This document shows positions 33,863 to 58,793 of a stretch of DNA of 60,967 nt, piece after piece. Origin of the DNA: a virus (lineage: Duplodnaviria; Caudoviricetes). The translations under genes were made by a program, and so were the position numbers. Location of the stretch: positions 1 to 60,967 of IMG/VR virus record IMGVR_UViG_3300024331_000060. One strand, 5' to 3'. The notes under the pieces are model-generated. The model saw only the letters and a list, made by a program, of their open reading frames with translations, was not told the DNA's origin and searched no databases. Position 1 is the stretch's first letter, and each line of letters starts with the position of its first letter.

Positions 33863-33891
33863 TTGACAACTCGTCATAATGCGCGTAGAAT
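33863..33891 (+). promoter_or_regulatory. sigma70 early promoter
   Basis: TTGACA-N17-TAGAAT with an IHF site 12 bp upstream. Confidence 0.8.
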
Positions 33892-34044: not shown

Positions 34045-34133
34045 CAGGCTTGCACTGCGCGGAGTTACGCTGCGTAGTCCATAGTGGAATTACGCGGCGC
34101 CGCGTGGTCAAGTCATACTTTGGAGTAATTCAA

Positions 34134-35824: not shown

Positions 35825-36088
35825 ATTGTTTAAAATCAAGGAGTTGAGAAATGGTTCCAATCTACGTAGTCCCTATGGTGGGGCTAATTATGTTTGTTCT
35901 TGGCCTGTACATTGGGGAGCAGTGAAGATGATTTATTTATCTCCAGAGTGGAGAGCTAGAAAGCAGGCTAGGTGGGAACGTTATGCTCGGAAGCACAGTA
36001 TAGTGTGTGACAGAGAATGGAACAGACGATGCTGGTGCTCCGGCTGTTTTAAACCCGATATGTCCAAATTTGTAGGAGTTTCACAGTA

Positions 36089-36919
36089 ATGAAGATCATT
36101 GATAGTGACGATTACCGTGCATCGGGGGTTGAGGCCATGTTCTTTCCCGGCGGAGAGCCTCACGTCAAAATTCCTCTATTTGAGGAGGAATTGCTTTTGT
36201 TTCTCAAATTACGTACTTGGAGTGACGTAGGTATCGCAGCCTGCCTAATCAATGCCTTAGATTGGCAAGGAACTGCGTACCAGACTTTCATACCGTACTA
36301 TCCGGGAGCCAGACAGGATCGCACCGACGGAACAGCCCCTCTCACAGTAGCTATGATAAGTAGACTCCTAGAGGCTACTCCTTTGGCCGTATTCGATCCC
36401 CACTCTCGGATATTGGGGGATACTGTAGATTACATTTACATGCCTAAGGATCTACCTATTCCAATAAATCCCTCCGTTGTGGGAATTATTGCTCCAGACG
36501 AAGGTGCGCAAGGACGGGCACTGCAATTCTTGGATAAGTTCTATCCAAATGCGGATTTGATTCAAGCCTATAAAGAGAGGGATTCTAAAACAGGCCAACT
36601 CAGTAACTATTCAATGGAATATCTCACTCAATCGGGGACCTATATCATCGTGGACGATATTTGTGATGGTGGAGGCACATTCAATCTTCTGGCGAATGCT
36701 TTTGATGAAGACCCAATTGCTTCACAGTGCGAACTTGAGATGTTCGTATCTCATGGCATATTTTCTAAAGGATTGGACAATATTTCTCCAAGAATCAAGA
36801 AGATAATAACTACGGATAGTTGGTGTGATCCTTCTCGTTCTCGATATAACTCGGAAAGACTCACAGTCATTCCTTTGATGCCAGCCCTTTTGCCTCATTT
36901 CTCAACTAAGGAGTATTGA
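36089..36919 (+). CDS. prs: ribose-phosphate pyrophosphokinase-like protein (candidate NARP1 ADPR-PP synthase)
   Basis: FPGGE, PYYPGARQDR, DPHS, APDEGA, IVDDICDGGGTF, SHGIFSKG. Confidence 0.88.
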   Translation: MKIIDSDDYRASGVEAMFFPGGEPHVKIPLFEEELLLFLKLRTWSDVGIAACLINALDWQGTAYQTFIPYYPGARQDRTDGTAPLTVAMISRLLEATPLAVFDPHSRILGDTVDYIYMPKDLPIPINPSVVGIIAPDEGAQGRALQFLDKFYPNADLIQAYKERDSKTGQLSNYSMEYLTQSGTYIIVDDICDGGGTFNLLANAFDEDPIASQCELEMFVSHGIFSKGLDNISPRIKKIITTDSWCDPSRSRYNSERLTVIPLMPALLPHFSTKEY

Positions 36920-38385
36920 TTATGCTCGATTTCATCCAATGCACAGATTTCTACAAGACAGGCCACATCCATCAGATGGCCCCTGGGACTACTCGGCTTT
37001 ACGAGAACTGGACAGCCCGAGCACCACGAAGCCAAGGATGGGACTGGGTAGTCAATTTCGGACTTCAAGCGTTCCTGAAATACGATTTGACGGATTTGGC
37101 GAATAGGACGTTCTTTAGCCGGGCTCGCGGGGATGTGCTGTACGACTACCAGAAGCTACTTGATAACTCCCTTGGGCCATTAGGTCTAAGTATTGAGCAC
37201 ATCGGGGCATTGCACGATTTGCAATATATCCCTTTGGAGTTCTGTGCTCTGCCCGAGGGCGTGAAGGTCCCGTACCGTATCCCCATGTTTACGACTGAAA
37301 ACACGCATCCTGATTTCGCTTGGGTAGGGGGATACATAGAGACCCTTCTTTCGTCCCGGCTCTGGATGGCATGTACAAGTGCTACCACAGCCTTACGATA
37401 CCGTAAGCTACTGGACACCTACGCAGAGCTGACAGGAGGGTCTAAGGACTTCGTAGACTGGCAAGGGCATGATTTCAGTTTCCGAGGTATGGCATCTCCA
37501 GAAGCTGCAGCCCTCTCAGGTGCAGGACATCTTCTGTCCTTCACAGGAACGGATACCATACCGGCCATTAAACTTCTCCATGATTGCTACGACGGTAAAG
37601 GCATTATTGGCGGCTCAGTCCCAGCCACCGAGCATATGGTTATGTGTCTTGGAGGAGATGGAAATCACGACGAATTGCGTACATTTCGCCGACTTCTGCA
37701 GCTATATCCAAAAGGAATCGTATCTGTAGTATCAGATACTTGGGACCTGTGGTATGTATTAACTGCAATACTTCCGGCACTTCACGACGAGATTAAAGCT
37801 AGGGACGGTAAATTGGTTATCCGGCCAGATTCGGGCGACCCTGTTCTGATAATCACAGGCGATGCTTCAGAGCCTGCGAACTCTCCTGCACACAAAGGCG
37901 TAGTTCAATTATTGTGGGAACAGTTTGGTGGAACTTACAACTCCAAAGGATTCAAGGAACTGGACTCTCACATTGGTACTATCTACGGAGATTCAATCAC
38001 GGAGGAACGTGCTCGACAGATATGCGAGCGATTGAAAGAGAAAGGATTCGCGTCAACCAACGTAGTCCTAGGGATAGGCTCGTACACATACCAATACTGC
38101 ACTCGTGATACTCACGGCTTCGCAGTCAAAGCCACCTGGGCGGAGGTGAACGGCAAGGAGCAGTTCCTATTCAAGAATCCTGTTACGGACAATGGGACTA
38201 AGAAATCGGCCCGAGGAAGGCTCGCGGTCGTAGAATCGGACGGGGCTCTGCAGTTACTTGAAGGGCTCAGTGAGTACGGCCAGAAGCAGATTGAAGGTAA
38301 TCTACTTCAACCCGTGTGGGGAAACGGACGCTTCCTTAAGAGGCAGACTCTGGCTGAAATTCGAGCACGCCTAAGGTCAAGCTAA
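36916..38385 (+). CDS. nadV: nicotinamide phosphoribosyltransferase-like protein (candidate NARP1 Namat)
   Basis: TDFYK.GH, HDFSFRG, SVPATEH, VSDTWD, IRPDSGDP, IYGDSIT, KKSARG. Confidence 0.92.
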   Translation: MIMLDFIQCTDFYKTGHIHQMAPGTTRLYENWTARAPRSQGWDWVVNFGLQAFLKYDLTDLANRTFFSRARGDVLYDYQKLLDNSLGPLGLSIEHIGALHDLQYIPLEFCALPEGVKVPYRIPMFTTENTHPDFAWVGGYIETLLSSRLWMACTSATTALRYRKLLDTYAELTGGSKDFVDWQGHDFSFRGMASPEAAALSGAGHLLSFTGTDTIPAIKLLHDCYDGKGIIGGSVPATEHMVMCLGGDGNHDELRTFRRLLQLYPKGIVSVVSDTWDLWYVLTAILPALHDEIKARDGKLVIRPDSGDPVLIITGDASEPANSPAHKGVVQLLWEQFGGTYNSKGFKELDSHIGTIYGDSITEERARQICERLKEKGFASTNVVLGIGSYTYQYCTRDTHGFAVKATWAEVNGKEQFLFKNPVTDNGTKKSARGRLAVVESDGALQLLEGLSEYGQKQIEGNLLQPVWGNGRFLKRQTLAEIRARLRSS

Positions 38386-38387
38386 CG

Positions 38388-38432
38388 TAAGTTCTTGATA
38401 AACTTGACAATGGCAGTGGGATCTGCTATAAT
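38388..38432 (+). promoter_or_regulatory. perfect-consensus sigma70 promoter with an adjacent IHF site
   Basis: TTGACA(38404)-N17-TATAAT with extended -10 TG; TAAGTTCTTGATA at 38388-38400. Confidence 0.85.
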
Positions 38433-38481
38433 GGTTGTGTAAAGTGAGAATTGGTTCTCGCTTCTAACGGGAGACTGAGAA

Positions 38482-38718
38482 ATGCAGAAACATCAGGTTT
38501 TGATTATTTCGGAAGGCAAACTCATTGGTCCTTTCCCGAGCCAAGAGATTGCCCAGGGATGGATAGATGCTCCGCATCATGTGGACAGGAATTACGAGAT
38601 GTACTCCATCTGGGAGCGGGAGCCGGGAACTGCCGAAACTGCCCACGAATGTGGTAGTCGTCTGGTAGGCATTGACGAAGCGACCAAACAGACCGGCCGC
38701 AAGACTGCCGGGGCCTGA
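38482..38718 (+). CDS. hypothetical protein
   Basis: GGAG RBS; first ORF after the promoter. Confidence 0.6.
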   Translation: MQKHQVLIISEGKLIGPFPSQEIAQGWIDAPHHVDRNYEMYSIWEREPGTAETAHECGSRLVGIDEATKQTGRKTAGA

Positions 38719-38760
38719 TTTCCTTTAACGGCGCAATACCGCGTCATAGGAGTAACTGTT

Positions 38761-38955
38761 ATGCAATTGTCAGATCTTGGACGGGTAACGAAAGAAACCC
38801 ACGGGCAAGTCAATCAGCCTTTCCTTGAGGGCGGTTTACCCCCCTTCAACAAATGGGCTCCGTACGATGCGGGGAGGGCGTCACAGGTTACCAAGGGAGT
38901 CAACAATGCTCCTTGGTTTGAATTAGCTCCACCGCCGTTTACCACGCGGTTCTAA
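38761..38955 (+). CDS. putative tandem (two-core) lasso-peptide precursor
   Basis: AGGAG RBS; two 31-aa units DLGRVTKETH|GQVNQPFLE and DAGRASQVTK|GVNNAPWFE, each with Thr(-2), Gly1 and Glu9. Confidence 0.75.
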   Translation: MQLSDLGRVTKETHGQVNQPFLEGGLPPFNKWAPYDAGRASQVTKGVNNAPWFELAPPPFTTRF

Positions 38956-39100
38956 GGAGTCGGATAGCGGCCCCCGGCTGCGATTTGTTTTGCAATCTCC
39001 CACCAAGATGGCAGGCGGACCGGCCGGGGGTTCGCTTATAAAGAGATTTGAGGGTAGGTAGCTGTTACGCCTAGATGGTGGTCTGGGTAAGGCAGTTTGA

Positions 39101-39610
39101 ATGAAAAGCAAAAAGTCCCGGATTGATGTACCGGGATTTTCCTTTGGTGAAAAAACAGGGGAGTTTATCGATGTACCCAAGATTTTTGGAGGTAAACCGA
39201 CGCCTAAGCGATCCGGTCGTCCGCACTCGCTTAATGAGCAAATTGGCGCTCAAACGATCTCGCGTGCTCGTAAGGCATTACAGCTTGCTACTAGCATTGC
39301 TAAGGAAGATTACTTCCGAAGGAAAAGGTCCCGACAGCGGGAATTAAAACGGGCGATAACAAATAATTCCCTGCCCAAAGCGTGCAGTCGTAGATTTTTC
39401 GAGCATATGGGGACTGATGCTCGCTTCCTTTCGTATGAGGAAGACCCCGAATTGTTTATAAGTAAATCAAAAACGGCGTATGAAATTACTGACGGCTTTT
39501 GTCCAATGGTAACAACTACAAGTGCCCGTGAGGCGCTAATCATCTGCGCGTCTCTAGCGCGCTACGGTATCGCAGCCTACTTTAATAAGATCGCGGTACC
39601 CCGATCCTGA
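39101..39610 (+). CDS. basic hypothetical protein
   Basis: 169-aa ORF followed by a terminator. Confidence 0.6.
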   Translation: MKSKKSRIDVPGFSFGEKTGEFIDVPKIFGGKPTPKRSGRPHSLNEQIGAQTISRARKALQLATSIAKEDYFRRKRSRQRELKRAITNNSLPKACSRRFFEHMGTDARFLSYEEDPELFISKSKTAYEITDGFCPMVTTTSAREALIICASLARYGIAAYFNKIAVPRS

Positions 39611-39650
39611 CACCAAGTCGGTCGCAGCCAAGCTGCTGGCCGCATCTTTA

Positions 39651-39680
39651 AGCCCCAGGCACTTTGCTGGGGCTTTTTTA
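39651..39680 (+). terminator. intrinsic terminator
   Basis: AGCCCCAG...CTGGGGCT-TTTTT. Confidence 0.8.
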
Positions 39681-39689
39681 TTGTCTTCG

Positions 39690-39856
39690 TTCCGGGGGAC
39701 ACCTCCTGTGCAACCTTTCGCGCTTGCTTCCTAGGTTAAGGCAAAGGCTCGGTTGTATGGCAAGGGTCCCCCGGGACACGGTTCAGGCACTCTTCAAGTC
39801 CGGTCAATAGCGCGGAGTCGCAGCGCAACGGACTTGATAGGGTGCCTTTTTATTTG
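39690..39856 (+). ncRNA. candidate structured RNA: two long interrupted stem-loops, the second ending in a T-tract
   Basis: CCGGGGGAC/GTCCCCCGG with TGCAACC/GGTTGTA; AGGCAC/GTGCCT with TCAAGTCCG/CGGACTTGA. Confidence 0.5.
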
Positions 39857-39889
39857 CCCATATGGCCAAGCTAACGCTGGAGGTACGTC

Positions 39890-40045
39890 ATGACTACATC
39901 TCTCAAGATCCTTCTTACAGAACTTGTTCTGATAATTTTCTTTGCCCTTTTGTATAAAGGGTCAGGCAAACGGGGACATGCGACAGCATTTGGCCTACTG
40001 GTTATAGTCTTTGTAATCACGCTAATCATCAAAATATGGCTATAG
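39890..40045 (+). CDS. small two-TM membrane protein (not in ORF track)
   Basis: GGAGGT RBS; MTTSLKILLTELVLIIFFALL...IKIWL*. Confidence 0.6.
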   Translation: MTTSLKILLTELVLIIFFALLYKGSGKRGHATAFGLLVIVFVITLIIKIWL

Positions 40046-40257
40046 ACCGAACCTAAGGAGATAGTCCATGAGTTGGGAACAATACGGCTACATCCTGTGG
40101 CATCTACAGTCCGATATTCGGTTCTACCAGTGGTACGACAAGGGGTACAAGATATGAGTGATGATCGCTTCAAACAGATTATGAAAACGATTGACTTCGT
40201 TATCTTCGCAATCTGTGCTTTTGGAGTTTTTGGGTACATAGCTTGGAGGGTTACGGT

Positions 40258-40593
40258 ATGCGTGCACTAATGTGGGTACTAATCGCAGTAGCAGCAGTTG
40301 GCTCTTTGATCATAGGATTGACAGGCTGCCACCCCGTAGTAGCACAACCAGGAATAGCAGGAGGCTGCAATAAAGCAGGAATCTGCTGCTATGTTCTTCC
40401 GAGCGGGGACGCCCTTTCCTGCGTAGCAACCAAAGTTCAAATCACTGTTTCTCCTGGAGAAATCAAAGATGAAGTACAGTCAGGGTCTAGTCGAGTACCC
40501 GATAACCAAGGAATGCCGTCGGCTGTTAGAGAAGTCTCAGGTAGAGCGCTTGAAGGCCGACTTCTTCTCAACCCTGGATTTGGAGAACGATAA
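40258..40593 (+). CDS. putative lipoprotein, Cys-rich
   Basis: GGAGG RBS; signal peptide ending in lipobox LTGC. Confidence 0.55.
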   Translation: MRALMWVLIAVAAVGSLIIGLTGCHPVVAQPGIAGGCNKAGICCYVLPSGDALSCVATKVQITVSPGEIKDEVQSGSSRVPDNQGMPSAVREVSGRALEGRLLLNPGFGER

Positions 40594-40729
40594 TGGGACG
40601 ACATCTCAAAAGGTGGGAAAAAGCGTACATTCGCAAAGCTTTGGCTTTGAGGAAGAAACTTACCTATAAAGCCATCGCAGCCCGATTAGGTATCAACGTT
40701 CGCACAGTCGAGAGCTACAGAGAGTAATC

Positions 40730-40969
40730 ATGCCGAAGTTCAAGCAACCGCCAGTAAAGTACGACTACACAGTCCGGACCATTGCCGCCGTCAGAGGGGG
40801 GAAGTTCATTACGACAGGAGAGTTCAACTGCGAGTCCGGAGCTGATGCCCGTCAGGCTGCGGACCGGCTTCAGCGAGAGTTCGATGTGGATTGTGATCCT
40901 TGTCGGACTTACGTGTACAACAGTGCGGGTCCTTTGCCGGTGTATGCAGGTCTGGGTAGGAGGGACTAG
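40730..40969 (+). CDS. hypothetical protein
   Basis: ATG ORF with a GAGAG RBS-like sequence. Confidence 0.55.
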   Translation: MPKFKQPPVKYDYTVRTIAAVRGGKFITTGEFNCESGADARQAADRLQREFDVDCDPCRTYVYNSAGPLPVYAGLGRRD

Positions 40970-41066
40970 GTGCGCAAGCTTATCAGGCTACTTATGAGCG
41001 GATCTATTTGCAGTCGTTGTCGTGAAGTCTGGGTTCCCGGACATCGTTGCTGAAAAGAGGTAAATC

Positions 41067-41981
41067 ATGGCGGATATAGACTACGGACCGCGTATTGGTG
41101 CTGATCCTGAGTTGTTCGTTCAGGACAAAGAGGGCAAAGTAGTGCCCATCTGTGGAAAGGTGGGAGGTACGAAAGAGCAGCCTCTGGTAATCAACCATTT
41201 GATAGAGGCCCTCTATGGACGAGAGATGGATGCTCGTGGACGGAGTCCGATAGATCGGGAGGGAAACTACGCAATTCAAGAGGACAACGTAATGCTGGAA
41301 TTCAATGTCCCAGCATACAAGGATTACACTACTTTTACCGAAGCAATCAACAAAATGCTTACGGTTATTGAGGGGCCAGTTCTCAGCAAGCATGAACTTC
41401 GAATTAAAAACGAGGTCATGTACACATTTCGGGCAGAAGACATTGCCCCCTTTCCTCAGGCATTTACTGTTGGATGTACGCCCGACATAGACGCTTATGC
41501 GGAAAGTGAGCGTCTGCCGTTCAATGCTACGCATTTCGGCAATCACCGTTTCTGCGGCGGACACATCCACGTACAGTACAATCATCACAATGTCCCTCGC
41601 CACATCTTCGCTCAATTCATGGATGTAGTAGCCGAATTGCCATTCCTTCGATGGGACAGGCAGAAGATGCGACGGATGTTCTATGGTCAGCCCGGCCTAT
41701 ACCGAGAAAAGCCCTACGGAATTGAGTACCGGACTCCGTCGAACTACTGGCTCTCCAAGAACTTCCGGGACAAATATTTGCTCCAATTGGTGGACAATGT
41801 ACTTGCCTTGGGGCGGACCGCCAACAATGAGCCAGAGCAGCTCAAGAGTGCGTACAGTAAGATTGATTGGGGCGATGTTCAGCACGCCATCAAGACAGAA
41901 AACCACAAACTGGCGGACGAGATCATCGATTTCACCCGCACAAAGGTGGGTTTGTATATAAATCCTCCTGCAGTTAGGTAG
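41067..41981 (+). CDS. phiEco32-like COOH-NH2 ligase type 2
   Basis: IGADPELF, GGTKEQP, QEDNVMLEFN, GCTPD, GGHIH, YREKPYGIEYRTPSNYW. Confidence 0.9.
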   Translation: MADIDYGPRIGADPELFVQDKEGKVVPICGKVGGTKEQPLVINHLIEALYGREMDARGRSPIDREGNYAIQEDNVMLEFNVPAYKDYTTFTEAINKMLTVIEGPVLSKHELRIKNEVMYTFRAEDIAPFPQAFTVGCTPDIDAYAESERLPFNATHFGNHRFCGGHIHVQYNHHNVPRHIFAQFMDVVAELPFLRWDRQKMRRMFYGQPGLYREKPYGIEYRTPSNYWLSKNFRDKYLLQLVDNVLALGRTANNEPEQLKSAYSKIDWGDVQHAIKTENHKLADEIIDFTRTKVGLYINPPAVR

Positions 41982-41995
41982 TTGCAGGAGGATAA

Positions 41996-42676
41996 ATGCT
42001 TCCAATTCAAAGACAGTGTGATGTAGAGAATCTCTCGGACTTTGCGAGGTATTATCAGTCTTCCTGGGTGGGCTGGCATTCGGACAAGGAAGATAAAATA
42101 GTGCCTTGCTTCGTAGGTTCTATGCTGGACCATGAGCGCATACAGTTGCGGGCGTTATCTAAACTGGAAACTGGACAATTCCACATAGATACGGGCTTCT
42201 CCGCTACGTGGGAGGGTCTCAAAACTCAATTGGATTTTGGGGTACCAGATCTAGGGATGGTGCAAGACGGGCCTACGGTCTGGTTTTGCTCTTACTCCAC
42301 TCCACGAGTTCCCAAAAAGGGATATCGTTCCCGTGATACTCAGAATACGGATTTCAATAGCTGGGATATCCGTAGGAAGTACGTATCTCGAAATGGAGGG
42401 GATAGGTACGACTGGACTTGGTTTGTGTTCAATCCAGAACACTATACCTTGGAGCAAGCGGAGGATAAGCTTAATAAAGGAGAAGTAGTAGGAGTTCCTA
42501 TCAGCAGGACTCTCGCAGTCTACTCAGCCCCCAAGTTCAAAAATTCTCTGTTGGCCTACAAACGGTGGACAGTAGGTCACGTGGTAAATCCTTTCCTTAT
42601 CCACCTCAAGCGGGAGTACTCTGACTACGAAGAAGACATAGCCCGACAAACGGGGGCGGAGGTAATTGTACGATGA
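41996..42676 (+). CDS. hypothetical protein within the amide-ligase cluster
   Basis: AGGAGG RBS; 226 aa. Confidence 0.7.
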   Translation: MLPIQRQCDVENLSDFARYYQSSWVGWHSDKEDKIVPCFVGSMLDHERIQLRALSKLETGQFHIDTGFSATWEGLKTQLDFGVPDLGMVQDGPTVWFCSYSTPRVPKKGYRSRDTQNTDFNSWDIRRKYVSRNGGDRYDWTWFVFNPEHYTLEQAEDKLNKGEVVGVPISRTLAVYSAPKFKNSLLAYKRWTVGHVVNPFLIHLKREYSDYEEDIARQTGAEVIVR

Positions 42677-42771
42677 CGACAGTATTTGCAGCAGGAATTG
42701 CTGCGGGTTTAAGTTCTTGTCTACTTTTGCTGCTGCTATGGTGGTTAAATTTTTGGAATAATGATCTATGA
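42673..42771 (+). CDS. 32-aa single-TM peptide
   Basis: ATGA overlaps at both ends; GGAGGT RBS. Confidence 0.5.
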   Translation: MTTVFAAGIAAGLSSCLLLLLLWWLNFWNNDL

Positions 42772-44033
42772 GTCTTGCAAGAATTTTGGGGAAGTCTAGA
42801 GGACGACAGTCCTTCATTTCCGATCCTCGATGGGTACTACCTACATCTTTCATTGGACTGGAGCATGAGTATGAGGGAGTCAAAGATCTCACGTTGCCTG
42901 ACCATACCTTCGCAGATTTCTGGACTTACCACGAGGAAGGTAGTCTTAAAGACCACGGCGCAGAGTACGTCTTTGCTACACCTCTATTCGGAGTTGATGC
43001 GTACAATGCCCTCGAATGGCTTGTTGCGCATGCCAAGGATTCTGGATGGAAGTGCACAAAAAGGACTGGTATACACGTACATCTCGATGTAAGAGATCTT
43101 ACCGTTCCACAGTTGGCAGGGATGAGTATCGTATACGCTGCTGTGGAACCTCTGCTCTACCACTGGATAGGGGATGGCAGGGATAGCTCCCACTTCTGCA
43201 TTCCCTTGTACCGCGCGGATGAGGCCCTCTTAGGGACTTGCTCAATCATACGTTGTGCTTTCAAGGACGACAAGACAGACGGTCACAGCACTCTAGGGGA
43301 GGCTGAAGCTTTTCAAAGGTATGCAGGCTACAATCTCCAAGCACTGCATAAGTTTGGCTCTGTCGAATTCCGACAGCTCCAGACCACTCATGATCTGGGT
43401 CGGATTACGGATTGGATCAATATCATCATGTCTCTTAAGGCGACAGCGTTTAAGTTGCCACAAAGTGATGGTGCCGTAGTCCGTATGCTGCAACACATGG
43501 GAGCAAAAGAACTCCTCCACTACATCTTTCCTTCTCATCTGGCAGAAAAGCTGTATACCGATAAGTCCGAGGAACAGCTATTCGTAAGAGGTCTTCCGTC
43601 TGCCCGGGACATAGCAGTCCACGGATGTTCGAATGATATGTGGATAAAAAGGGACTTTCCGAGGGGACAGCACGAAGGTTTTGCAAAATGGATGAAAGAT
43701 GCCAAAAATGCAAAATATTCTCCAGCGGCAGAAGAAGAAATGCAGGAACCCGTGGACGAGATAGACTTTGATGATGTGGAGGAAGATGTAGCGCCAGTTC
43801 CAGATTGGCGTGCTCCGGGGGCTCCTGCTCCTATTGGCGGAGTTGAACTTCGGCTAGAAGCACAACGAGCCCTTGCAGGATTTGATGCGGTTTTCAATCG
43901 TATCCAGCCGCCCAATCCTCAGGGGCTCAATGTCAACATCGGCGCAGCAGATCCTTTTGGTCTTCCTGTAGGTGATAGAGTACGTGTAAATCAACCACCT
44001 ATATTTCGTCGTCGTCCGGCCCGTCCTCGATAA
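42768..44033 (+). CDS. putative amidoligase (Amidoligase_2-like)
   Basis: IGLEHE, EEGSL...GAEYV, RTGIHVHLD, RY.GYNL, GSVEFRQ. Confidence 0.85.
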   Translation: MSLARILGKSRGRQSFISDPRWVLPTSFIGLEHEYEGVKDLTLPDHTFADFWTYHEEGSLKDHGAEYVFATPLFGVDAYNALEWLVAHAKDSGWKCTKRTGIHVHLDVRDLTVPQLAGMSIVYAAVEPLLYHWIGDGRDSSHFCIPLYRADEALLGTCSIIRCAFKDDKTDGHSTLGEAEAFQRYAGYNLQALHKFGSVEFRQLQTTHDLGRITDWINIIMSLKATAFKLPQSDGAVVRMLQHMGAKELLHYIFPSHLAEKLYTDKSEEQLFVRGLPSARDIAVHGCSNDMWIKRDFPRGQHEGFAKWMKDAKNAKYSPAAEEEMQEPVDEIDFDDVEEDVAPVPDWRAPGAPAPIGGVELRLEAQRALAGFDAVFNRIQPPNPQGLNVNIGAADPFGLPVGDRVRVNQPPIFRRRPARPR

Positions 44034-44063
44034 GAATCAATAAGTTAGGAGAGTTTCGATACA

Positions 44064-45629
44064 ATGTGTGGAATTATTGGCGTAGCGTCTAGTGAAGGTA
44101 TGAAAAGTCGTTTGAGTCGGCTGCAGTTCCTGAAGATGGGACTGGATATCGACTCTTGGCGAGGATGGGAGAGCACAGGTCTAGCCTTAGTGCCTGAAGG
44201 TCTCAAAGACGCTCCGATCGTCTACAAACGTGCATTGAACGGTCGCGATTTCATTCAACTCAAAACTGTGGATAAGCTCCTCAATGACATCGAAAAGTAC
44301 CCTATTGCCATCGGTCACAATCGTGCTGCCACTACTGGGCGTGGTAATATTACTGATCATAATGCTCATCCCTTCCAATACGGTAATATTACTCTTGTAC
44401 ATAACGGACATATTAGGAATACTGATGATCTCAAAGGAGCCCACCAAGGAGCAGAATGTCTAGTAGATAGCGCCCATGTCGCGTTCTCTATGAATGCGAA
44501 CGGGGAGAAGGAGACCTTGGAGTCGGTCGATGGCGGTTTTGTATTCGTCTGGTGGAACTCCGAGAAGGGACTTCTCAATATTGCCCGGAATACGGAGCGT
44601 CCGCTCCATATGGCCTTCGCCGCGAAAGAGAATACTTTCTACTGGGCATCCGAGCTTACCGAACTATTGCATCTACTCAAGGATGTTACGATAGATGAGG
44701 AAATTGGTATCTTGTATCCCAAGGCGTGGAACTGGTACCAATTCAAACTCGAAAATCTGCGGGAGTGGACCCGCGTCCCTTTTGTGAAAAGCCAAGGACG
44801 GCTGTCTCCCACTACACAGACTGGCCAAACAACTGGCGGGCGCACCAGCAGCCATACCGCCGGAACTCCGTGGACGGACGAGGAATTAATGGAGTGGGAG
44901 TGGGAGCAACAGGGACTGATGACAACGGAGCGAGCTACAGTGTCTACGGGTCGGATGTCTAAGAAAGAAACAGACGAAATCGAGGAAATTCGTCAACGAG
45001 CTGCAAATCAGCGACTCAAAGATATTAAGCAGTCAGGCATTCCTACCTCCAAGAAGCGAGTATTGCGGGCAACCGCAGAACTGGCAAAGCTGGGAATTCA
45101 ATACCAGGGTCTTCGAAATTGCATTGCCATGACGTGGTGCAAGTATAAGAATCAAGGAAATCTTGGTTCCGTAGTTGCTAGGACTAAGAAAGAAGGCTAC
45201 ACAGTGGAGGTACTTCAGGTCCGTTACGAGCAGTACCTAGACTACAAACGAGCAGGAAATCTCTTGGTAGACTGTGTAAATGTCCGGACTAGCGATAAAA
45301 ATGAGCCAAAGATCATTGGTGTTGTGAACGGTAGAATGAAACCTTATTTGGCCAAAAAGAAAGAAGAGGAAGAAGCTGAGAAGAAAAACGGAGGCTCTAC
45401 GAGCCGCGACTATTGCGGACCTCATGGTCAAAAGGTAACTTTAGCTCGATTCTTGGAGATAACAGACACTGGTTGCGCTAATTGTCTGCGCGACTTGGAT
45501 GCCAAGCAACACGAAGAAATAGTTTGGGTGGGACATCCAGCTAGTCCCCTGTGCAAAGATTGCGCAGAAGACCCTAAAGTAATGGAGCTATGCGGTATGC
45601 CGCAACGAATCGAGCTTGGTATTCACTAG
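44064..45629 (+). CDS. class II (Ntn) glutamine amidotransferase with a C-terminal Zn finger
   Basis: MCGIIG, RG.ESTG, GHNRAAT, NAHPF, HNG, VDS; CANC...CKDC. Confidence 0.88.
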   Translation: MCGIIGVASSEGMKSRLSRLQFLKMGLDIDSWRGWESTGLALVPEGLKDAPIVYKRALNGRDFIQLKTVDKLLNDIEKYPIAIGHNRAATTGRGNITDHNAHPFQYGNITLVHNGHIRNTDDLKGAHQGAECLVDSAHVAFSMNANGEKETLESVDGGFVFVWWNSEKGLLNIARNTERPLHMAFAAKENTFYWASELTELLHLLKDVTIDEEIGILYPKAWNWYQFKLENLREWTRVPFVKSQGRLSPTTQTGQTTGGRTSSHTAGTPWTDEELMEWEWEQQGLMTTERATVSTGRMSKKETDEIEEIRQRAANQRLKDIKQSGIPTSKKRVLRATAELAKLGIQYQGLRNCIAMTWCKYKNQGNLGSVVARTKKEGYTVEVLQVRYEQYLDYKRAGNLLVDCVNVRTSDKNEPKIIGVVNGRMKPYLAKKKEEEEAEKKNGGSTSRDYCGPHGQKVTLARFLEITDTGCANCLRDLDAKQHEEIVWVGHPASPLCKDCAEDPKVMELCGMPQRIELGIH

Positions 45630-45639
45630 GAGTTCATTC

Positions 45640-46512
45640 ATGACAGAACCTAATATTCAAGGTGTTCGTAGTCCTTCCAGCCCCCGAGAAGGGCTTCAGA
45701 AAGTCTTTGTATACGGAACTCTTAAGAAGGCGTACCACAACCATAAGTGGTATCTGGGAGAGGCTAGAGATCTAGGCCCAGCCACCATAGAAGGGTTGAT
45801 GTTTCATTTGGGCAGTTTTCCCGCCATCAATTTGGCTGAGAGTTTCTGCACCATACACGGAGAGGTGTACGAGGCTACCTGGGAGCAAATCACAGCCATG
45901 GACCACCTAGAAGGGGTGAGCAATGGCTTCTACACTCGTATCCAGGCCACAGTAAAGCCTCACGGAGTGGTCTGGATGTACATATTCACCCATGACAGGG
46001 CAGGAAAAGAGGAATGGCTAATCCCAGGAGGACGCTGGGAAGGGCCAGAAACGAATAAGGTGAAATGGCTTGGCTTCGGTAAGGGAGTCGAAGTAGGAGC
46101 TTTCGAAGCCAGATTAGCCTATCCCGGGGAAATCAAGATAGGACCCGGCGATAGTCCATATACCCTCCGCAGAAGCGGAGGGGACGATACTTATAAACTC
46201 ATAGACAAGAAGACAGGAGAAATCCTAGGTTCTTATAAGTATCTAAGAGATATGACGAGTAAAGATGGAACTCGAAAGCCCGTTCTTAGGCTACCTGCAG
46301 TTGCTCGTCCCACGCCAGAACAACCTTTGAATCCCCCCAAATCCGCTGAAATTACCGTCATCGGACCTCGGCCCGTAGATCAGCACCCCCATATCCCGAT
46401 AGTGTGGACACCGGACCAAAATGACAGGGATCTTGTCCATACTCCTGCTCCCGTTGAAGAAAAGATTCCACAGGCAGCCAAACTTCTTGGACTTAAGTAT
46501 GGAGAAGCTTAG
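45640..46512 (+). CDS. gamma-glutamylcyclotransferase (AIG2-like) domain protein
   Basis: VFVYGTLK...NH, GSFPA, IHGEVYE, MDHLEG...Y.R. Confidence 0.85.
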   Translation: MTEPNIQGVRSPSSPREGLQKVFVYGTLKKAYHNHKWYLGEARDLGPATIEGLMFHLGSFPAINLAESFCTIHGEVYEATWEQITAMDHLEGVSNGFYTRIQATVKPHGVVWMYIFTHDRAGKEEWLIPGGRWEGPETNKVKWLGFGKGVEVGAFEARLAYPGEIKIGPGDSPYTLRRSGGDDTYKLIDKKTGEILGSYKYLRDMTSKDGTRKPVLRLPAVARPTPEQPLNPPKSAEITVIGPRPVDQHPHIPIVWTPDQNDRDLVHTPAPVEEKIPQAAKLLGLKYGEA

Positions 46513-46625
46513 ATTGAACGAAGAGCAGAGGAAAGCCCTGGAAATCATAGCTGAAATGGTATTTCCAATAGGAGCCTATGACGATGTAGACGGTACCATG
46601 GAGATTCGTTTACACGGAGAGGCCC

Positions 46626-47657
46626 ATGAAATACTCTGCAATATCTTCAAAAGGAAATGGGATGAAAGGCGTAAGAGTAGACAAGTTTAAATTCTACGAT
46701 CTGGTGATCTATGCAGCTAGAGGTTCTAGTGGCGCAAGACGACTCGCTACCGCTCTTGGTTCTCGTCGATGGAGAGACGATCTGCCTGAGAGGTATACGA
46801 GGCGAAGGCCGTACTTCCGGGGGAACGACAGTCCAATGGTCGTTAATTGGGGGTCAACTATACATCCGAAGTGGCTCGACGACCACCGCTTTCGACTTAA
46901 GCCAATATACGTCAATCAAGCCGGGCCTGTTCGTAAAGCAATTGACAAGCTTGCTTTCTTTCAACACCTATCCGGAGTTGATGGGGTACCTCTGCTCAAG
47001 TGGACGGACCAGAGAGAAGCCGCTGCTCGCTGGCTGGAAAAAGGACGCGGAGTCGTCTGCCGAACTAAATTGGACGCAAGCTCTGGACAAGGCATTGTCC
47101 TCGCAAAGACCGTGGATGAACTCATCGACGCCCCTCTCTACACCCGATATTACCCCAAAACCCACGAGTTCCGAGTCCACGTCTTCAACGGAGAAGTGAT
47201 TGATTTAACTCAGAAAAAACTGAAAGGAGGCGCAGATGCTCGTCTTAATTCCGATACTTTTGTTCGCAGCCATGACAATGGCTGGGTGCATGCTCATGGT
47301 GCGTTGGATCTACGAGGAGTGGATCAGGAGAGATTGGGAAGGGCTGCTATTAGCAGTGTTTCTGGGCTCGGTCTCATTTTTGGTGCTGTCGATGTTTTGG
47401 CTGTTCTTGATCCCCCATCTATGGAAGACAGGTCTCGCAGTCTAAAATCTTTCAAGATCTGTGAGATAAACACAGGACCTGGACTAGAGAACCAGGCAAC
47501 CATTGAAGCGTATACAAGGGCCATTCTTGCCCTTAAATCGTCTCTAAAAGACGATAAAGCAATACTTGAATACAAGTCGGAGAAGAACAATGACGGCATC
47601 GAGCATAGTTTGGAAGGAATTTCCGGAAATCAACCGCAAAGTGGCGTTCCAATCTAA
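46626..47657 (+). CDS. ATP-grasp ligase (phiEco32-type)
   Basis: VVNWG, IDKLAFF, SSGQGI, APLYTRY, EFRVHV, VRSHDNGW, FGAVDV, EINTGPGL. Confidence 0.88.
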   Translation: MKYSAISSKGNGMKGVRVDKFKFYDLVIYAARGSSGARRLATALGSRRWRDDLPERYTRRRPYFRGNDSPMVVNWGSTIHPKWLDDHRFRLKPIYVNQAGPVRKAIDKLAFFQHLSGVDGVPLLKWTDQREAAARWLEKGRGVVCRTKLDASSGQGIVLAKTVDELIDAPLYTRYYPKTHEFRVHVFNGEVIDLTQKKLKGGADARLNSDTFVRSHDNGWVHAHGALDLRGVDQERLGRAAISSVSGLGLIFGAVDVLAVLDPPSMEDRSRSLKSFKICEINTGPGLENQATIEAYTRAILALKSSLKDDKAILEYKSEKNNDGIEHSLEGISGNQPQSGVPI

Positions 47658-58717: not shown

Positions 58718-58793
58718 TGGAGTGTAGTTCAGTTGGTAGAACGCGGACCTGTTAAGTCCGTAGTCGCAGGTTCGATCCCTGCCCCTCCAGCCA
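58718..58793 (+). tRNA. tRNA-Asn(GTT)
   Basis: 76-nt cloverleaf, CGGAC-CTGTTAA-GTCCG anticodon arm, GGTTCGATCC, G73-CCA; one acceptor mismatch. Confidence 0.92.

Follow-up and report, generated by a model that had tools for sequence, protein, structure and literature searches.

Lasso peptides are usually viewed as the products of self-contained bacterial gene clusters, in which a short precursor peptide is encoded together with the enzymes that process it. Here we describe ORF64, an open reading frame (ORF) at positions 38761-38955 on the plus strand of the IMG/VR virus record IMGVR_UViG_3300024331_000060, which runs from an ATG start and encodes a 64-aa product, MQLSDLGRVTKETHGQVNQPFLEGGLPPFNKWAPYDAGRASQVTKGVNNAPWFELAPPPFTTRF. 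The stretch of DNA analysed, called the window below, is the whole of that record (60967 bp; CheckV completeness 100%). By homology, ORF64 is a genuine member of a proteobacterial lasso-precursor family and, among the proteins searched, it is unique in carrying two leader-core units in one polypeptide; its carrier looks like a virulent, podovirus-like phage. The findings depart from the usual view in that a precursor-only gene is carried by a complete phage, in that such genes recur in three other, unrelated phage lineages, and in that the bacterial precursors of the family often lie by a receptor gene and away from the lasso enzymes, namely B (leader-binding domain and peptidase) and C (cyclase). 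We put at about even the chance that ORF64 is a captured lasso precursor that is matured by the B and C enzymes of the host and yields a receptor ligand.

Homology of ORF64 to lasso precursors

A Pfam search with ORF64 returned a single match, to PF24178 (lasso peptide Subterisin; E 0.002, 18.5 bits, residues 5-26), and an NCBIfam search returned benenodin (NF033522; E 0.078, 12.9 bits) on unit 2 of the protein. An exhaustive phmmer scan of 1.84 billion representatives yielded one real relative, P0002, a single-unit protein of 35 aa that has 59% identity to ORF64 and keeps every key residue; P0002 itself matches PF24178 (E 2.1e-4) and the NCBIfam benenodin family (E 0.0087). No further family matched ORF64 or P0002 at loosened thresholds (E<=1, E<=10), a word-based protein search with ORF64 recovered no protein but ORF64 itself, and viral, genome and metagenome contigs yielded no match to the three-row alignment A1; a protein identical to ORF64 occurs on just one other contig. 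One additional phmmer match, P0003 (E 1.4e-4), is a 161-aa repeat protein on an ENA contig of 3883 bp, in which a motif of Y-D-A-G, then K-G-Y, then F-D-G-R-Y-V-Y-F occurs three times and whose match covers ORF64 residues 13-49, across the unit junction. P0003 has no lasso features and no Pfam family, and it was set aside as a probable chance or low-complexity match.

Further members of the family were collected with a back-translated DNA pattern taken from the window (D-x-G-x5-T-x-G-x4-P-x2-E-x3-PPF), which gave five stretches, two of them true, in species-representative genomes and 17 stretches, 16 of them true, in JGI metagenomes; L083, L049, L050 and L052 were dropped as false matches, and the strict pattern had no match in viral contigs. 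The true matches were called as ORFs of 39-57 aa, with a leader that ends in [LI]-I-D-C-G-[KR]-A-S-x-x-T-x, and the bacterial cores comprise 19-21 residues, i.e., G-x4-P-x2-E-x3-PPF and 4-5 further residues, followed by the stop. A profile hidden Markov model (HMM) built from 16 distinct bacterial and metagenome sequences, none of them from the window, gave ORF64 64.6 bits, made up of two domains that each account for about 32-35 bits; scored singly, unit 1 reached 34.0 bits and unit 2 reached 35.1 bits, P0002 reached 43.4 bits, and the second-best of the 1757 six-frame frames in the phage reached 8.0 bits. Because the family had been collected with a window-derived pattern, we made a control set of 5000 random peptides fixed at the 11 pattern residues; these scored 12.2 +/- 4.9 bits (maximum 32.2), and none reached 34. 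An initial annotation of the window had proposed a lasso-type precursor with two leader-core units, and the scores of the individual units against this profile bear that proposal out. The Pfam profile PF24178 reached E<=0.01 with six of the 19 family members.

A profile search of 5.8 billion proteins produced 843 candidates and, at E<=0.001, 309 cluster representatives, the best 120 of which were examined. ORF64 tops this search at 106 bits, followed by the next protein at 81 bits, and among the best 120 of the 309 it is the only two-domain protein; the names in this set are all 'hypothetical protein', save for one that is apparently misannotated. The initial annotation had named in advance the conservation of Thr(-2), Gly1 and Glu9 among homologues as a point on which the lasso interpretation could fail, and the outcome favours that interpretation; T-x-G-x7-E is found in 117 of 119 relatives (the best 120 of 309 minus ORF64), and the other two have Glu8, so that Thr(-2) and Gly1 are conserved in all 119. 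A profile search of proteins of 113-2000 aa gave three matches, all single-unit proteins with over-called N-termini, and with 8000 candidates scored this is weak evidence on longer proteins.

Two leader-core units in one polypeptide

The description of ORF64 as a gap-free tandem repeat of 31 aa also stood, as residues 5-33 and 36-64 align without gaps at an offset of 31 with 11 of 29 positions identical (D, G, R, T, G, N, P, E, P, P, and F), a number that only 9 of 20000 shuffles of ORF64 attained when all offsets between 15 and 44 were allowed. The DNA of the two units agrees at 45 of 87 aligned bases (about 48% divergence), so that the duplication is old and no recent slip. Both units carry T(-2)-x-Gly1 (T13-H14/G15 and T44-K45/G46) in columns that are invariant in alignments A3 and A5, both have a ring-closing candidate Glu9 (E23 and E54), and both cores have bulky residues (F, W, Y, R) after the predicted ring; the core of unit 2 ends 4 residues past PPF, as in bacterial cores. 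Between the upstream in-frame stop and the ATG of ORF64 there is no alternative ATG, GTG or TTG, and no in-frame start codon lies ahead of unit 2, so that unit 2 would be made only within the fused chain. Coordinates of the leader and core segments are given in Table 1.

Genomic context of the bacterial relatives

Judged by genomic context, the ORF64 family is a lasso family. At locus L084, the gene directly after the precursor, on the same strand, encodes a transglutaminase-like protein (PF13471, 62.7 bits), and one for an Asn-synthase-like protein (PF00733, 69.8 bits) comes next; a TonB-dependent receptor is convergent to them, with FecR, an STN fragment and a sigma-70 region-4 protein alongside. 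L070, a near relative whose leader is the same, lies just upstream of B and C in the metagenome-assembled genome (MAG) G006. Lasso B/C pairs are present in both MAGs that have a family member, with about five pairs in G006 and one in G007. In 13 of the 18 bacterial or metagenome loci, a homologous TonB-dependent receptor of ~1000 aa is encoded directly upstream of the precursor on the same strand, and an N-terminal STN signalling domain is present in both of the full-length receptors that were compared with Pfam (L048 and L051). The other five loci comprise two of the A-B-C type (L084 and L074, the sequence of the latter ending at the peptide gene), two with <65 nt of upstream sequence, and one, L081, that is receptor-free, with 1.3 kb of upstream sequence in which no such receptor is found.

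In G007, FecI, FecR, C, B and an ABC exporter are encoded on one contig (L069, G007:C24), in whose sequence no precursor is seen, and another contig (L051) carries an STN receptor and a precursor without FecI or FecR. The lasso system of G007 hence appears to be split across contigs, and from this arrangement the lasso peptide would seem to serve the STN-TonB receptor as its signalling ligand. As judged from the loci compared here, precursors of this family are commonly encoded away from the enzymes; since they stand apart from the enzymes in bacteria, they would therefore act in trans, as a phage-borne copy would require. As a separate observation on these loci, a gene for an S41 (CtpA-like) PDZ peptidase is found no more than about 2-3 kb from the receptor and precursor genes at three loci in two groups (L048, 6818-7891, minus strand; L051, 6694-7977, minus strand; and L088); its product could be a tail-trimming or regulatory protease, or its position could be a coincidence.

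Absence of lasso enzymes from the window and orphan copies in other phages

The claim that the phage genome encodes no lasso enzymes agrees with all searches made for them. HMMs for PF00733, PF13471 and PF05402, run over the six frames of the complete phage, gave no match at E<=1 under conditions in which the controls were detected; tblastn with the B, C, D, FecI, FecR and receptor proteins of the family against the window gave nothing at E<=1e-5; and no SGGxDS PP-loop occurs in any frame of the window. Because the phage is without B, C and a leader-recognition protein (RRE), the maturation enzymes would have to be those of the host. A complex prediction with ORF64 and a B protein of the L084 type (alignment A4) scored 0.07 against a mark of 0.32, a value that, coming from a run without controls, speaks neither for nor against binding.

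Other phages were found to carry precursors of this family when the viral contigs were searched with a relaxed pattern (D-x-G-[KR-like]-x-[ST-like]-x2-T-x-G-x7-E-x3-PP), which gave seven stretches; four were true, at 29.0-47.3 bits against the family profile, and L091, L092 and L094 were dropped as false at 5 bits or less. The four viral carriers represent three lineages, all with single-unit copies, namely G008 (34.5 kb, 75% complete, with a large terminase in the precursor locus), G009 (71.7 kb, terminal repeats, 100% complete), with which the fragment G010 is grouped, and G011 (46.5 kb, terminal repeats, 100% complete). Neither PF00733 nor PF13471 was detected in any of the four (0/4 for each), and no homologues of the family B, C, D, FecI, FecR or receptor proteins were found in them. 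These carriers share almost nothing with the window phage, save for G009, which also bears a NAMPT gene (60% identical) and a phosphoribosyltransferase gene (51%). As they are carried in three other lineages, orphan phage lasso precursors are a recurring pattern and no isolated case. The phage copies match PF24178 at E about 1e-4 and, in most cases, have D-L-G where bacterial members have D-C-G, although the G011 copy retains D-C-G; several phage-borne leaders begin right at the conserved block, and the C-terminal tails of the phage copies tend to be longer, those of G008 and G011 being rich in Cys. In two phage-borne copies (L093, 7592-7732, plus strand, and L097, 9972-10133, minus strand), long extensions with 2 and 5 Cys, respectively, continue past PPF, whereas bacterial cores stop 4-5 residues past it.

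ORF64 lies in a stand-alone accessory cassette

A promoter, ORF78, ORF64 and a hairpin together form a stand-alone cassette (Table 1). The AGGAG ribosome-binding site and the perfect sigma-70 promoter of the initial annotation are both present, the promoter (38404-38432) ending 329 nt ahead of the ATG of ORF64; it is the sole perfect TTGACA-17-TATAAT in the 60967-base window, and shuffled sequences average 0.25 matches when as much as 1 mismatch is allowed. Another sigma-70 promoter, close to consensus (TTGACA-17-TAGAAT, 1 mismatch), is found at 33863-33891 on the plus strand, ~160 nt ahead of a 360-aa ORF at 34050. ORF78 matched no Pfam, NCBIfam or PHROG family and has no relatives among viral contigs, and in the Atlas it matches only unnamed phage clusters, at a score of 0.84 or less; considered as a possible RRE, it was rejected given the missing PqqD match, the lack of a family and the unnamed Atlas clusters. 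The hairpin behind ORF64 (38967-38991) is part of a longer hairpin at roughly 38964-39039; the fold, at -41.9 kcal/mol and a z of -1.57, is not significant alone. A search of Rfam with positions 38200-39300 gave only a sub-threshold hammerhead match (E 0.12).

In comparisons with related phages, the ORF64 cassette is accessory and moron-like. A related major head protein, at 42-91% identity, is encoded at 36 IMG/VR loci, and the peptide gene, sought in the five near-complete genomes among them, was found in none (0/5 at E<=10). In G002, the ORF169 homologue comes straight after the NAMPT gene, leaving the cassette slot empty; in G001, the slot between NAMPT and the ORF169 homologue (L047, G001:C1:8800-11500) is occupied by three unrelated small genes (113, 63 and 151 aa), and since other small genes are carried there, the slot is a hot spot for accessory cargo. 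In the related-locus search, ORF169 itself had no relatives in viral contigs. The GC content of the cassette, at 52%, is modestly above the 47.5% of the genome, and that of ORF64 (52.8%) is reached by 13% of 195-bp windows.

Table 1. Features of the ORF64 cassette, of the two leader-core units and of the downstream ligase cluster in the window
Feature	Position	Strand	Remarks
Sigma-70-type promoter	38404..38432	+	TTGACA-17-TATAAT, TG before -10; 12/12 match; cassette start
ORF78	38482..38718	+	78 aa, function not assigned; first cassette gene
Ribosome-binding site	38748..38752	+	AGGAG; 8 nt before ORF64 ATG; read from sequence
ORF64, two-unit lasso-precursor homologue	38761..38955	+	stop codon included
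Unit 1 leader (putative)	38761..38802	+	residues 1-14; D(-10), G(-8), R(-7), T(-5), T(-2); alignments A3, A5
Unit 1 core (putative)	38803..38865	+	residues 15-35; Gly1, Pro6, Glu9, PPF at 13-15, then NKWAPY
Unit 2 leader remnant (putative)	38866..38895	+	residues 36-45; D, G, R, S, T at family leader positions
Unit 2 core (putative)	38896..38952	+	residues 46-64; Gly1, Pro6, Glu9, PPF at 13-15
Terminator-like hairpin, T-rich tail	38967..38991	+	12 nt past ORF64 stop
phiEco32-type COOH-NH2 ligase	41067		same strand as ORF64; cluster ~2 kb downstream
Amidoligase_2	42768		member of ligase cluster
Ntn / class-II glutamine amidotransferase	44064		521 aa; ~300-aa C-terminal part without assigned family
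GGACT gamma-glutamyl cyclotransferase	45616		member of ligase cluster
RimK-like protein (phrog_2599)	46626		member of ligase cluster

Proposed mechanism

If ORF64 is a captured precursor, the cassette would be transcribed by the host RNA polymerase from its consensus promoter after infection, and the host B and C enzymes would cut after Thr(-2)-x and close a ring between Gly1 and Glu9. A cut at K45/G46 would release core 2, of 19 residues, for cyclisation, and a cut at H14/G15 would release core 1, the tail of which would retain the 10-residue leader remnant unless it is trimmed; the yield would hence be at least one lasso peptide, core 2, and possibly a longer-tailed core 1. Since bacterial members of the family go together with an STN receptor and with FecI/FecR, the product is most likely a receptor ligand, which would act on an STN-type TonB-dependent receptor by occupying it or by triggering signalling. 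By analogy, such masking of, or signalling through, the receptor may benefit the phage, e.g., by blocking the adsorption of other phages or by altering receptor expression. The homology, the two units, the lack of maturation enzymes in the phage, the cassette and the recurrence of orphan copies are shown; the use of host enzymes, an effector or decoy role and the release of two lasso peptides, all raised in the initial annotation, should be taken as predictions.

Several observations weigh against a captured precursor with a receptor-directed product. The library scores lie below the curated cut-offs (18.5 vs 27 bits for PF24178 and 12.9 vs 33 bits for NF033522). Within ORF64, the putative leader has 14 residues, compared with ~20-45 for most bacterial leaders (with starts as called here), the hydrophobic pair conserved in the family at -12 and -11 is missing from unit 2, core 1 would bear an extra tail of 10 residues, and we know of no lasso peptidase that cuts at an internal second site. 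With regard to the bacterial systems, the enzyme contig of G007 ends 1.3 kb past the ABC gene, so that an adjacent precursor may lie beyond its end. Bacterial family loci have a GC content of 54-67% and the other carrier phages of 57-59%, compared with 47.5% for the window phage, and because of this difference the host of the window phage may lie outside the group in which the family was found here. Finally, the expression and maturation of ORF64 are predicted, the B and C genes are presumed to be present in the host, and the receptor-level function is proposed by analogy.

If host enzymes do process the peptide, ORF64 would represent a viral auxiliary gene that supplies a substrate and not an enzyme, and lasso peptides would gain a role in phage-host or phage-phage conflict at the outer-membrane receptor. 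The tandem architecture would in that case show that lasso enzymes are able to work on an internal leader, which would be useful for engineering. A broader proposal is that phages of Gram-negative bacteria repeatedly capture bare precursors, which are matured by host B, C and D and serve as ligands of the cognate STN-type TonB-dependent receptor, masking a phage receptor or driving cell-surface signalling in neighbouring cells, and that ORF64 is the first natural lasso polyprotein, giving two different peptides by internal-leader cleavage; we offer this proposal tentatively and consider it somewhat doubtful.

Alternative explanations

ORF64 might also be a passenger, i.e., a neutral pickup from a bacterium or another phage, or a peptide that acts unmodified and independently of any lasso pathway, for example by binding a host protein via its PPF motifs. 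A slot that varies, with no genes in it in G002 and different ones in G001, is in keeping with such a pickup, as are the modestly raised GC content of the cassette and the finding of an identical protein on just one other contig; independent carriage in three other phage lineages, however, argues for selection, the family-invariant residues are kept in both units despite about 48% DNA divergence, and the promoter, ribosome-binding site and terminator-like signals are intact, and we consequently regard a passenger as unlikely, though by no means far-fetched. The same homology that points to a lasso precursor would equally be expected of a decoy or inhibitor, in which the two leader-like segments bind the host leader-recognition domain or B/C without giving a useful product and thereby shut down a host lasso peptide whose role, coupled to a receptor, may be a hindrance to the phage. 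Two such segments per chain would raise avidity, the leader of unit 2 is degenerate, and the consensus promoter suggests high expression; a leader decoy, however, needs none of Gly1, Pro6, Glu9 and PPF, which are kept in both cores despite long divergence, and the single-unit phage copies retain complete cores, so that this explanation seems to us decidedly unlikely.

Maturation by the phage itself is a further alternative, given that a cluster of peptide-ligase-type genes on the same strand, 2 kb downstream of ORF64, encodes a chemistry that fits, namely the joining of an amine to a side-chain carboxylate through an amide bond, and might close the Gly1-Glu9 ring without lasso B and C. DNA matches to the ligase gene of this cluster were, however, found in three of the five relatives (G001, G002 and G004), and all five are free of the peptide; carriers G008, G009 and G011 are without homologues of the cluster (tblastn, E<=1e-5), and the peptide gene has a promoter and a terminator of its own, all of which makes self-sufficient maturation very improbable. 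We give less credence still to a chance resemblance, under which ORF64 would be unrelated to lasso precursors or untranslated. Library scores under the curated cut-offs and the short, Pro- and Gly-rich nature of the peptide would be in keeping with it; set against these are the 34-35 bits that each unit obtains with a profile that contains neither of them and that none of the 5000 motif-matched controls obtains, and the recovery, in an unbiased phmmer scan, of P0002 with all of its key residues.

Relation to known systems

Among known lasso peptides, the closest comparison is with the class II precursors of the subterisin/astexin type (PF24178), which are similar to ORF64 in having a short leader ending in Thr(-2)-x, a Gly1 and an acidic residue at position 8-9, as well as through the weak but specific match to PF24178 and through bacterial relatives that lie beside a TonB receptor, FecR and a sigma factor. 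ORF64 differs from these precursors in being borne by a phage, in having no enzymes beside its gene and in its two units; as the scores fall below the Pfam cut-off, the ORF64 family is a separate, so far unnamed family. Lasso clusters of the isopeptidase type carry a TonB-dependent transporter and a sigma/anti-sigma pair, according to a review (PMC9266682). A precedent for the proposed role, and for the role only, is microcin J25, a lasso peptide that is described in a review (PMC9311878) as binding FhuA and preventing the binding of T5; it resembles the proposed product as a lasso peptide that blocks a phage on a TonB-dependent receptor, but its gene lies on a plasmid, it comes with McjB, C and D of its own, and bacteria direct it at other bacteria, and no sequence relation to ORF64 is claimed.

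With regard to architecture, peptides made on the ribosome and modified after translation (RiPPs) with multi-core precursors (e.g., cyanobactins, dikaritins and cyclotides) have several cores per chain with flanking recognition sequences, and lasso peptides are not named among the multi-core classes in the review concerned (PMC8842026). ORF64 likewise carries more than one core per chain with flanking recognition sequence; these multi-core precursors, however, rely on a single leader at the N-terminus and on dedicated proteases or macrocyclases, whereas ORF64 has a leader segment for each core and its enzymes would be lasso B and C. The cassette resembles phage morons in its own promoter, its terminator-like hairpin, its variable slot and its absence from close relatives, and would differ from them in that its cargo is a substrate for a host pathway and not an enzyme, toxin or exclusion protein. 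The initial annotation was aware of no described phage lasso precursor or leader-core-leader-core lasso precursor, and in line with this we found no report of a phage-encoded or multi-core lasso precursor in a literature search whose scope excluded most subscription journals and supplements. Bacterial RiPPs have been tied to phage defence by co-expression in a study that removed viral contigs from its RiPP set (PMC11118758), and the accessible part of PMC13352647 contains nothing on phage lasso peptides.

Other features of the phage genome

The window phage, with a GC content of 47.5%, encodes P22-like portal, major head, scaffold and head-closure proteins as well as a family-A DNA polymerase and a DnaB-like helicase; a tyrosine integrase (PF00589) was not found in it, and for this reason the phage looks virulent. 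Among the matches listed, its portal shares at most 35.5% identity with P22-like portals, the phages concerned being mostly those of Gammaproteobacteria, and megablast of window positions 36000-42000 against GenBank phages gave no match. Peptide-ligase-type genes form a conserved cluster at 41067-47657 (Table 1), which also includes a 226-aa protein without assigned function. The 521-aa amidotransferase of this cluster was considered as a hidden lasso cyclase and rejected, as it has only a GlmS-type N-terminal GATase domain and no PP-loop. A single tRNA gene, tRNA-Asn (GTT), is located at 58718-58793 on the plus strand. Just upstream of the cassette, at 36089-38385, lies an NAD-salvage pair, of which one member is a phosphoribosyltransferase-like protein of 276 aa (weak PF00156) and the other a NAMPT of 489 aa (PF04095, E 3.9e-40), a pair that we take to resemble the phage NAD-reconstitution pathways that counter NAD-depleting defence.

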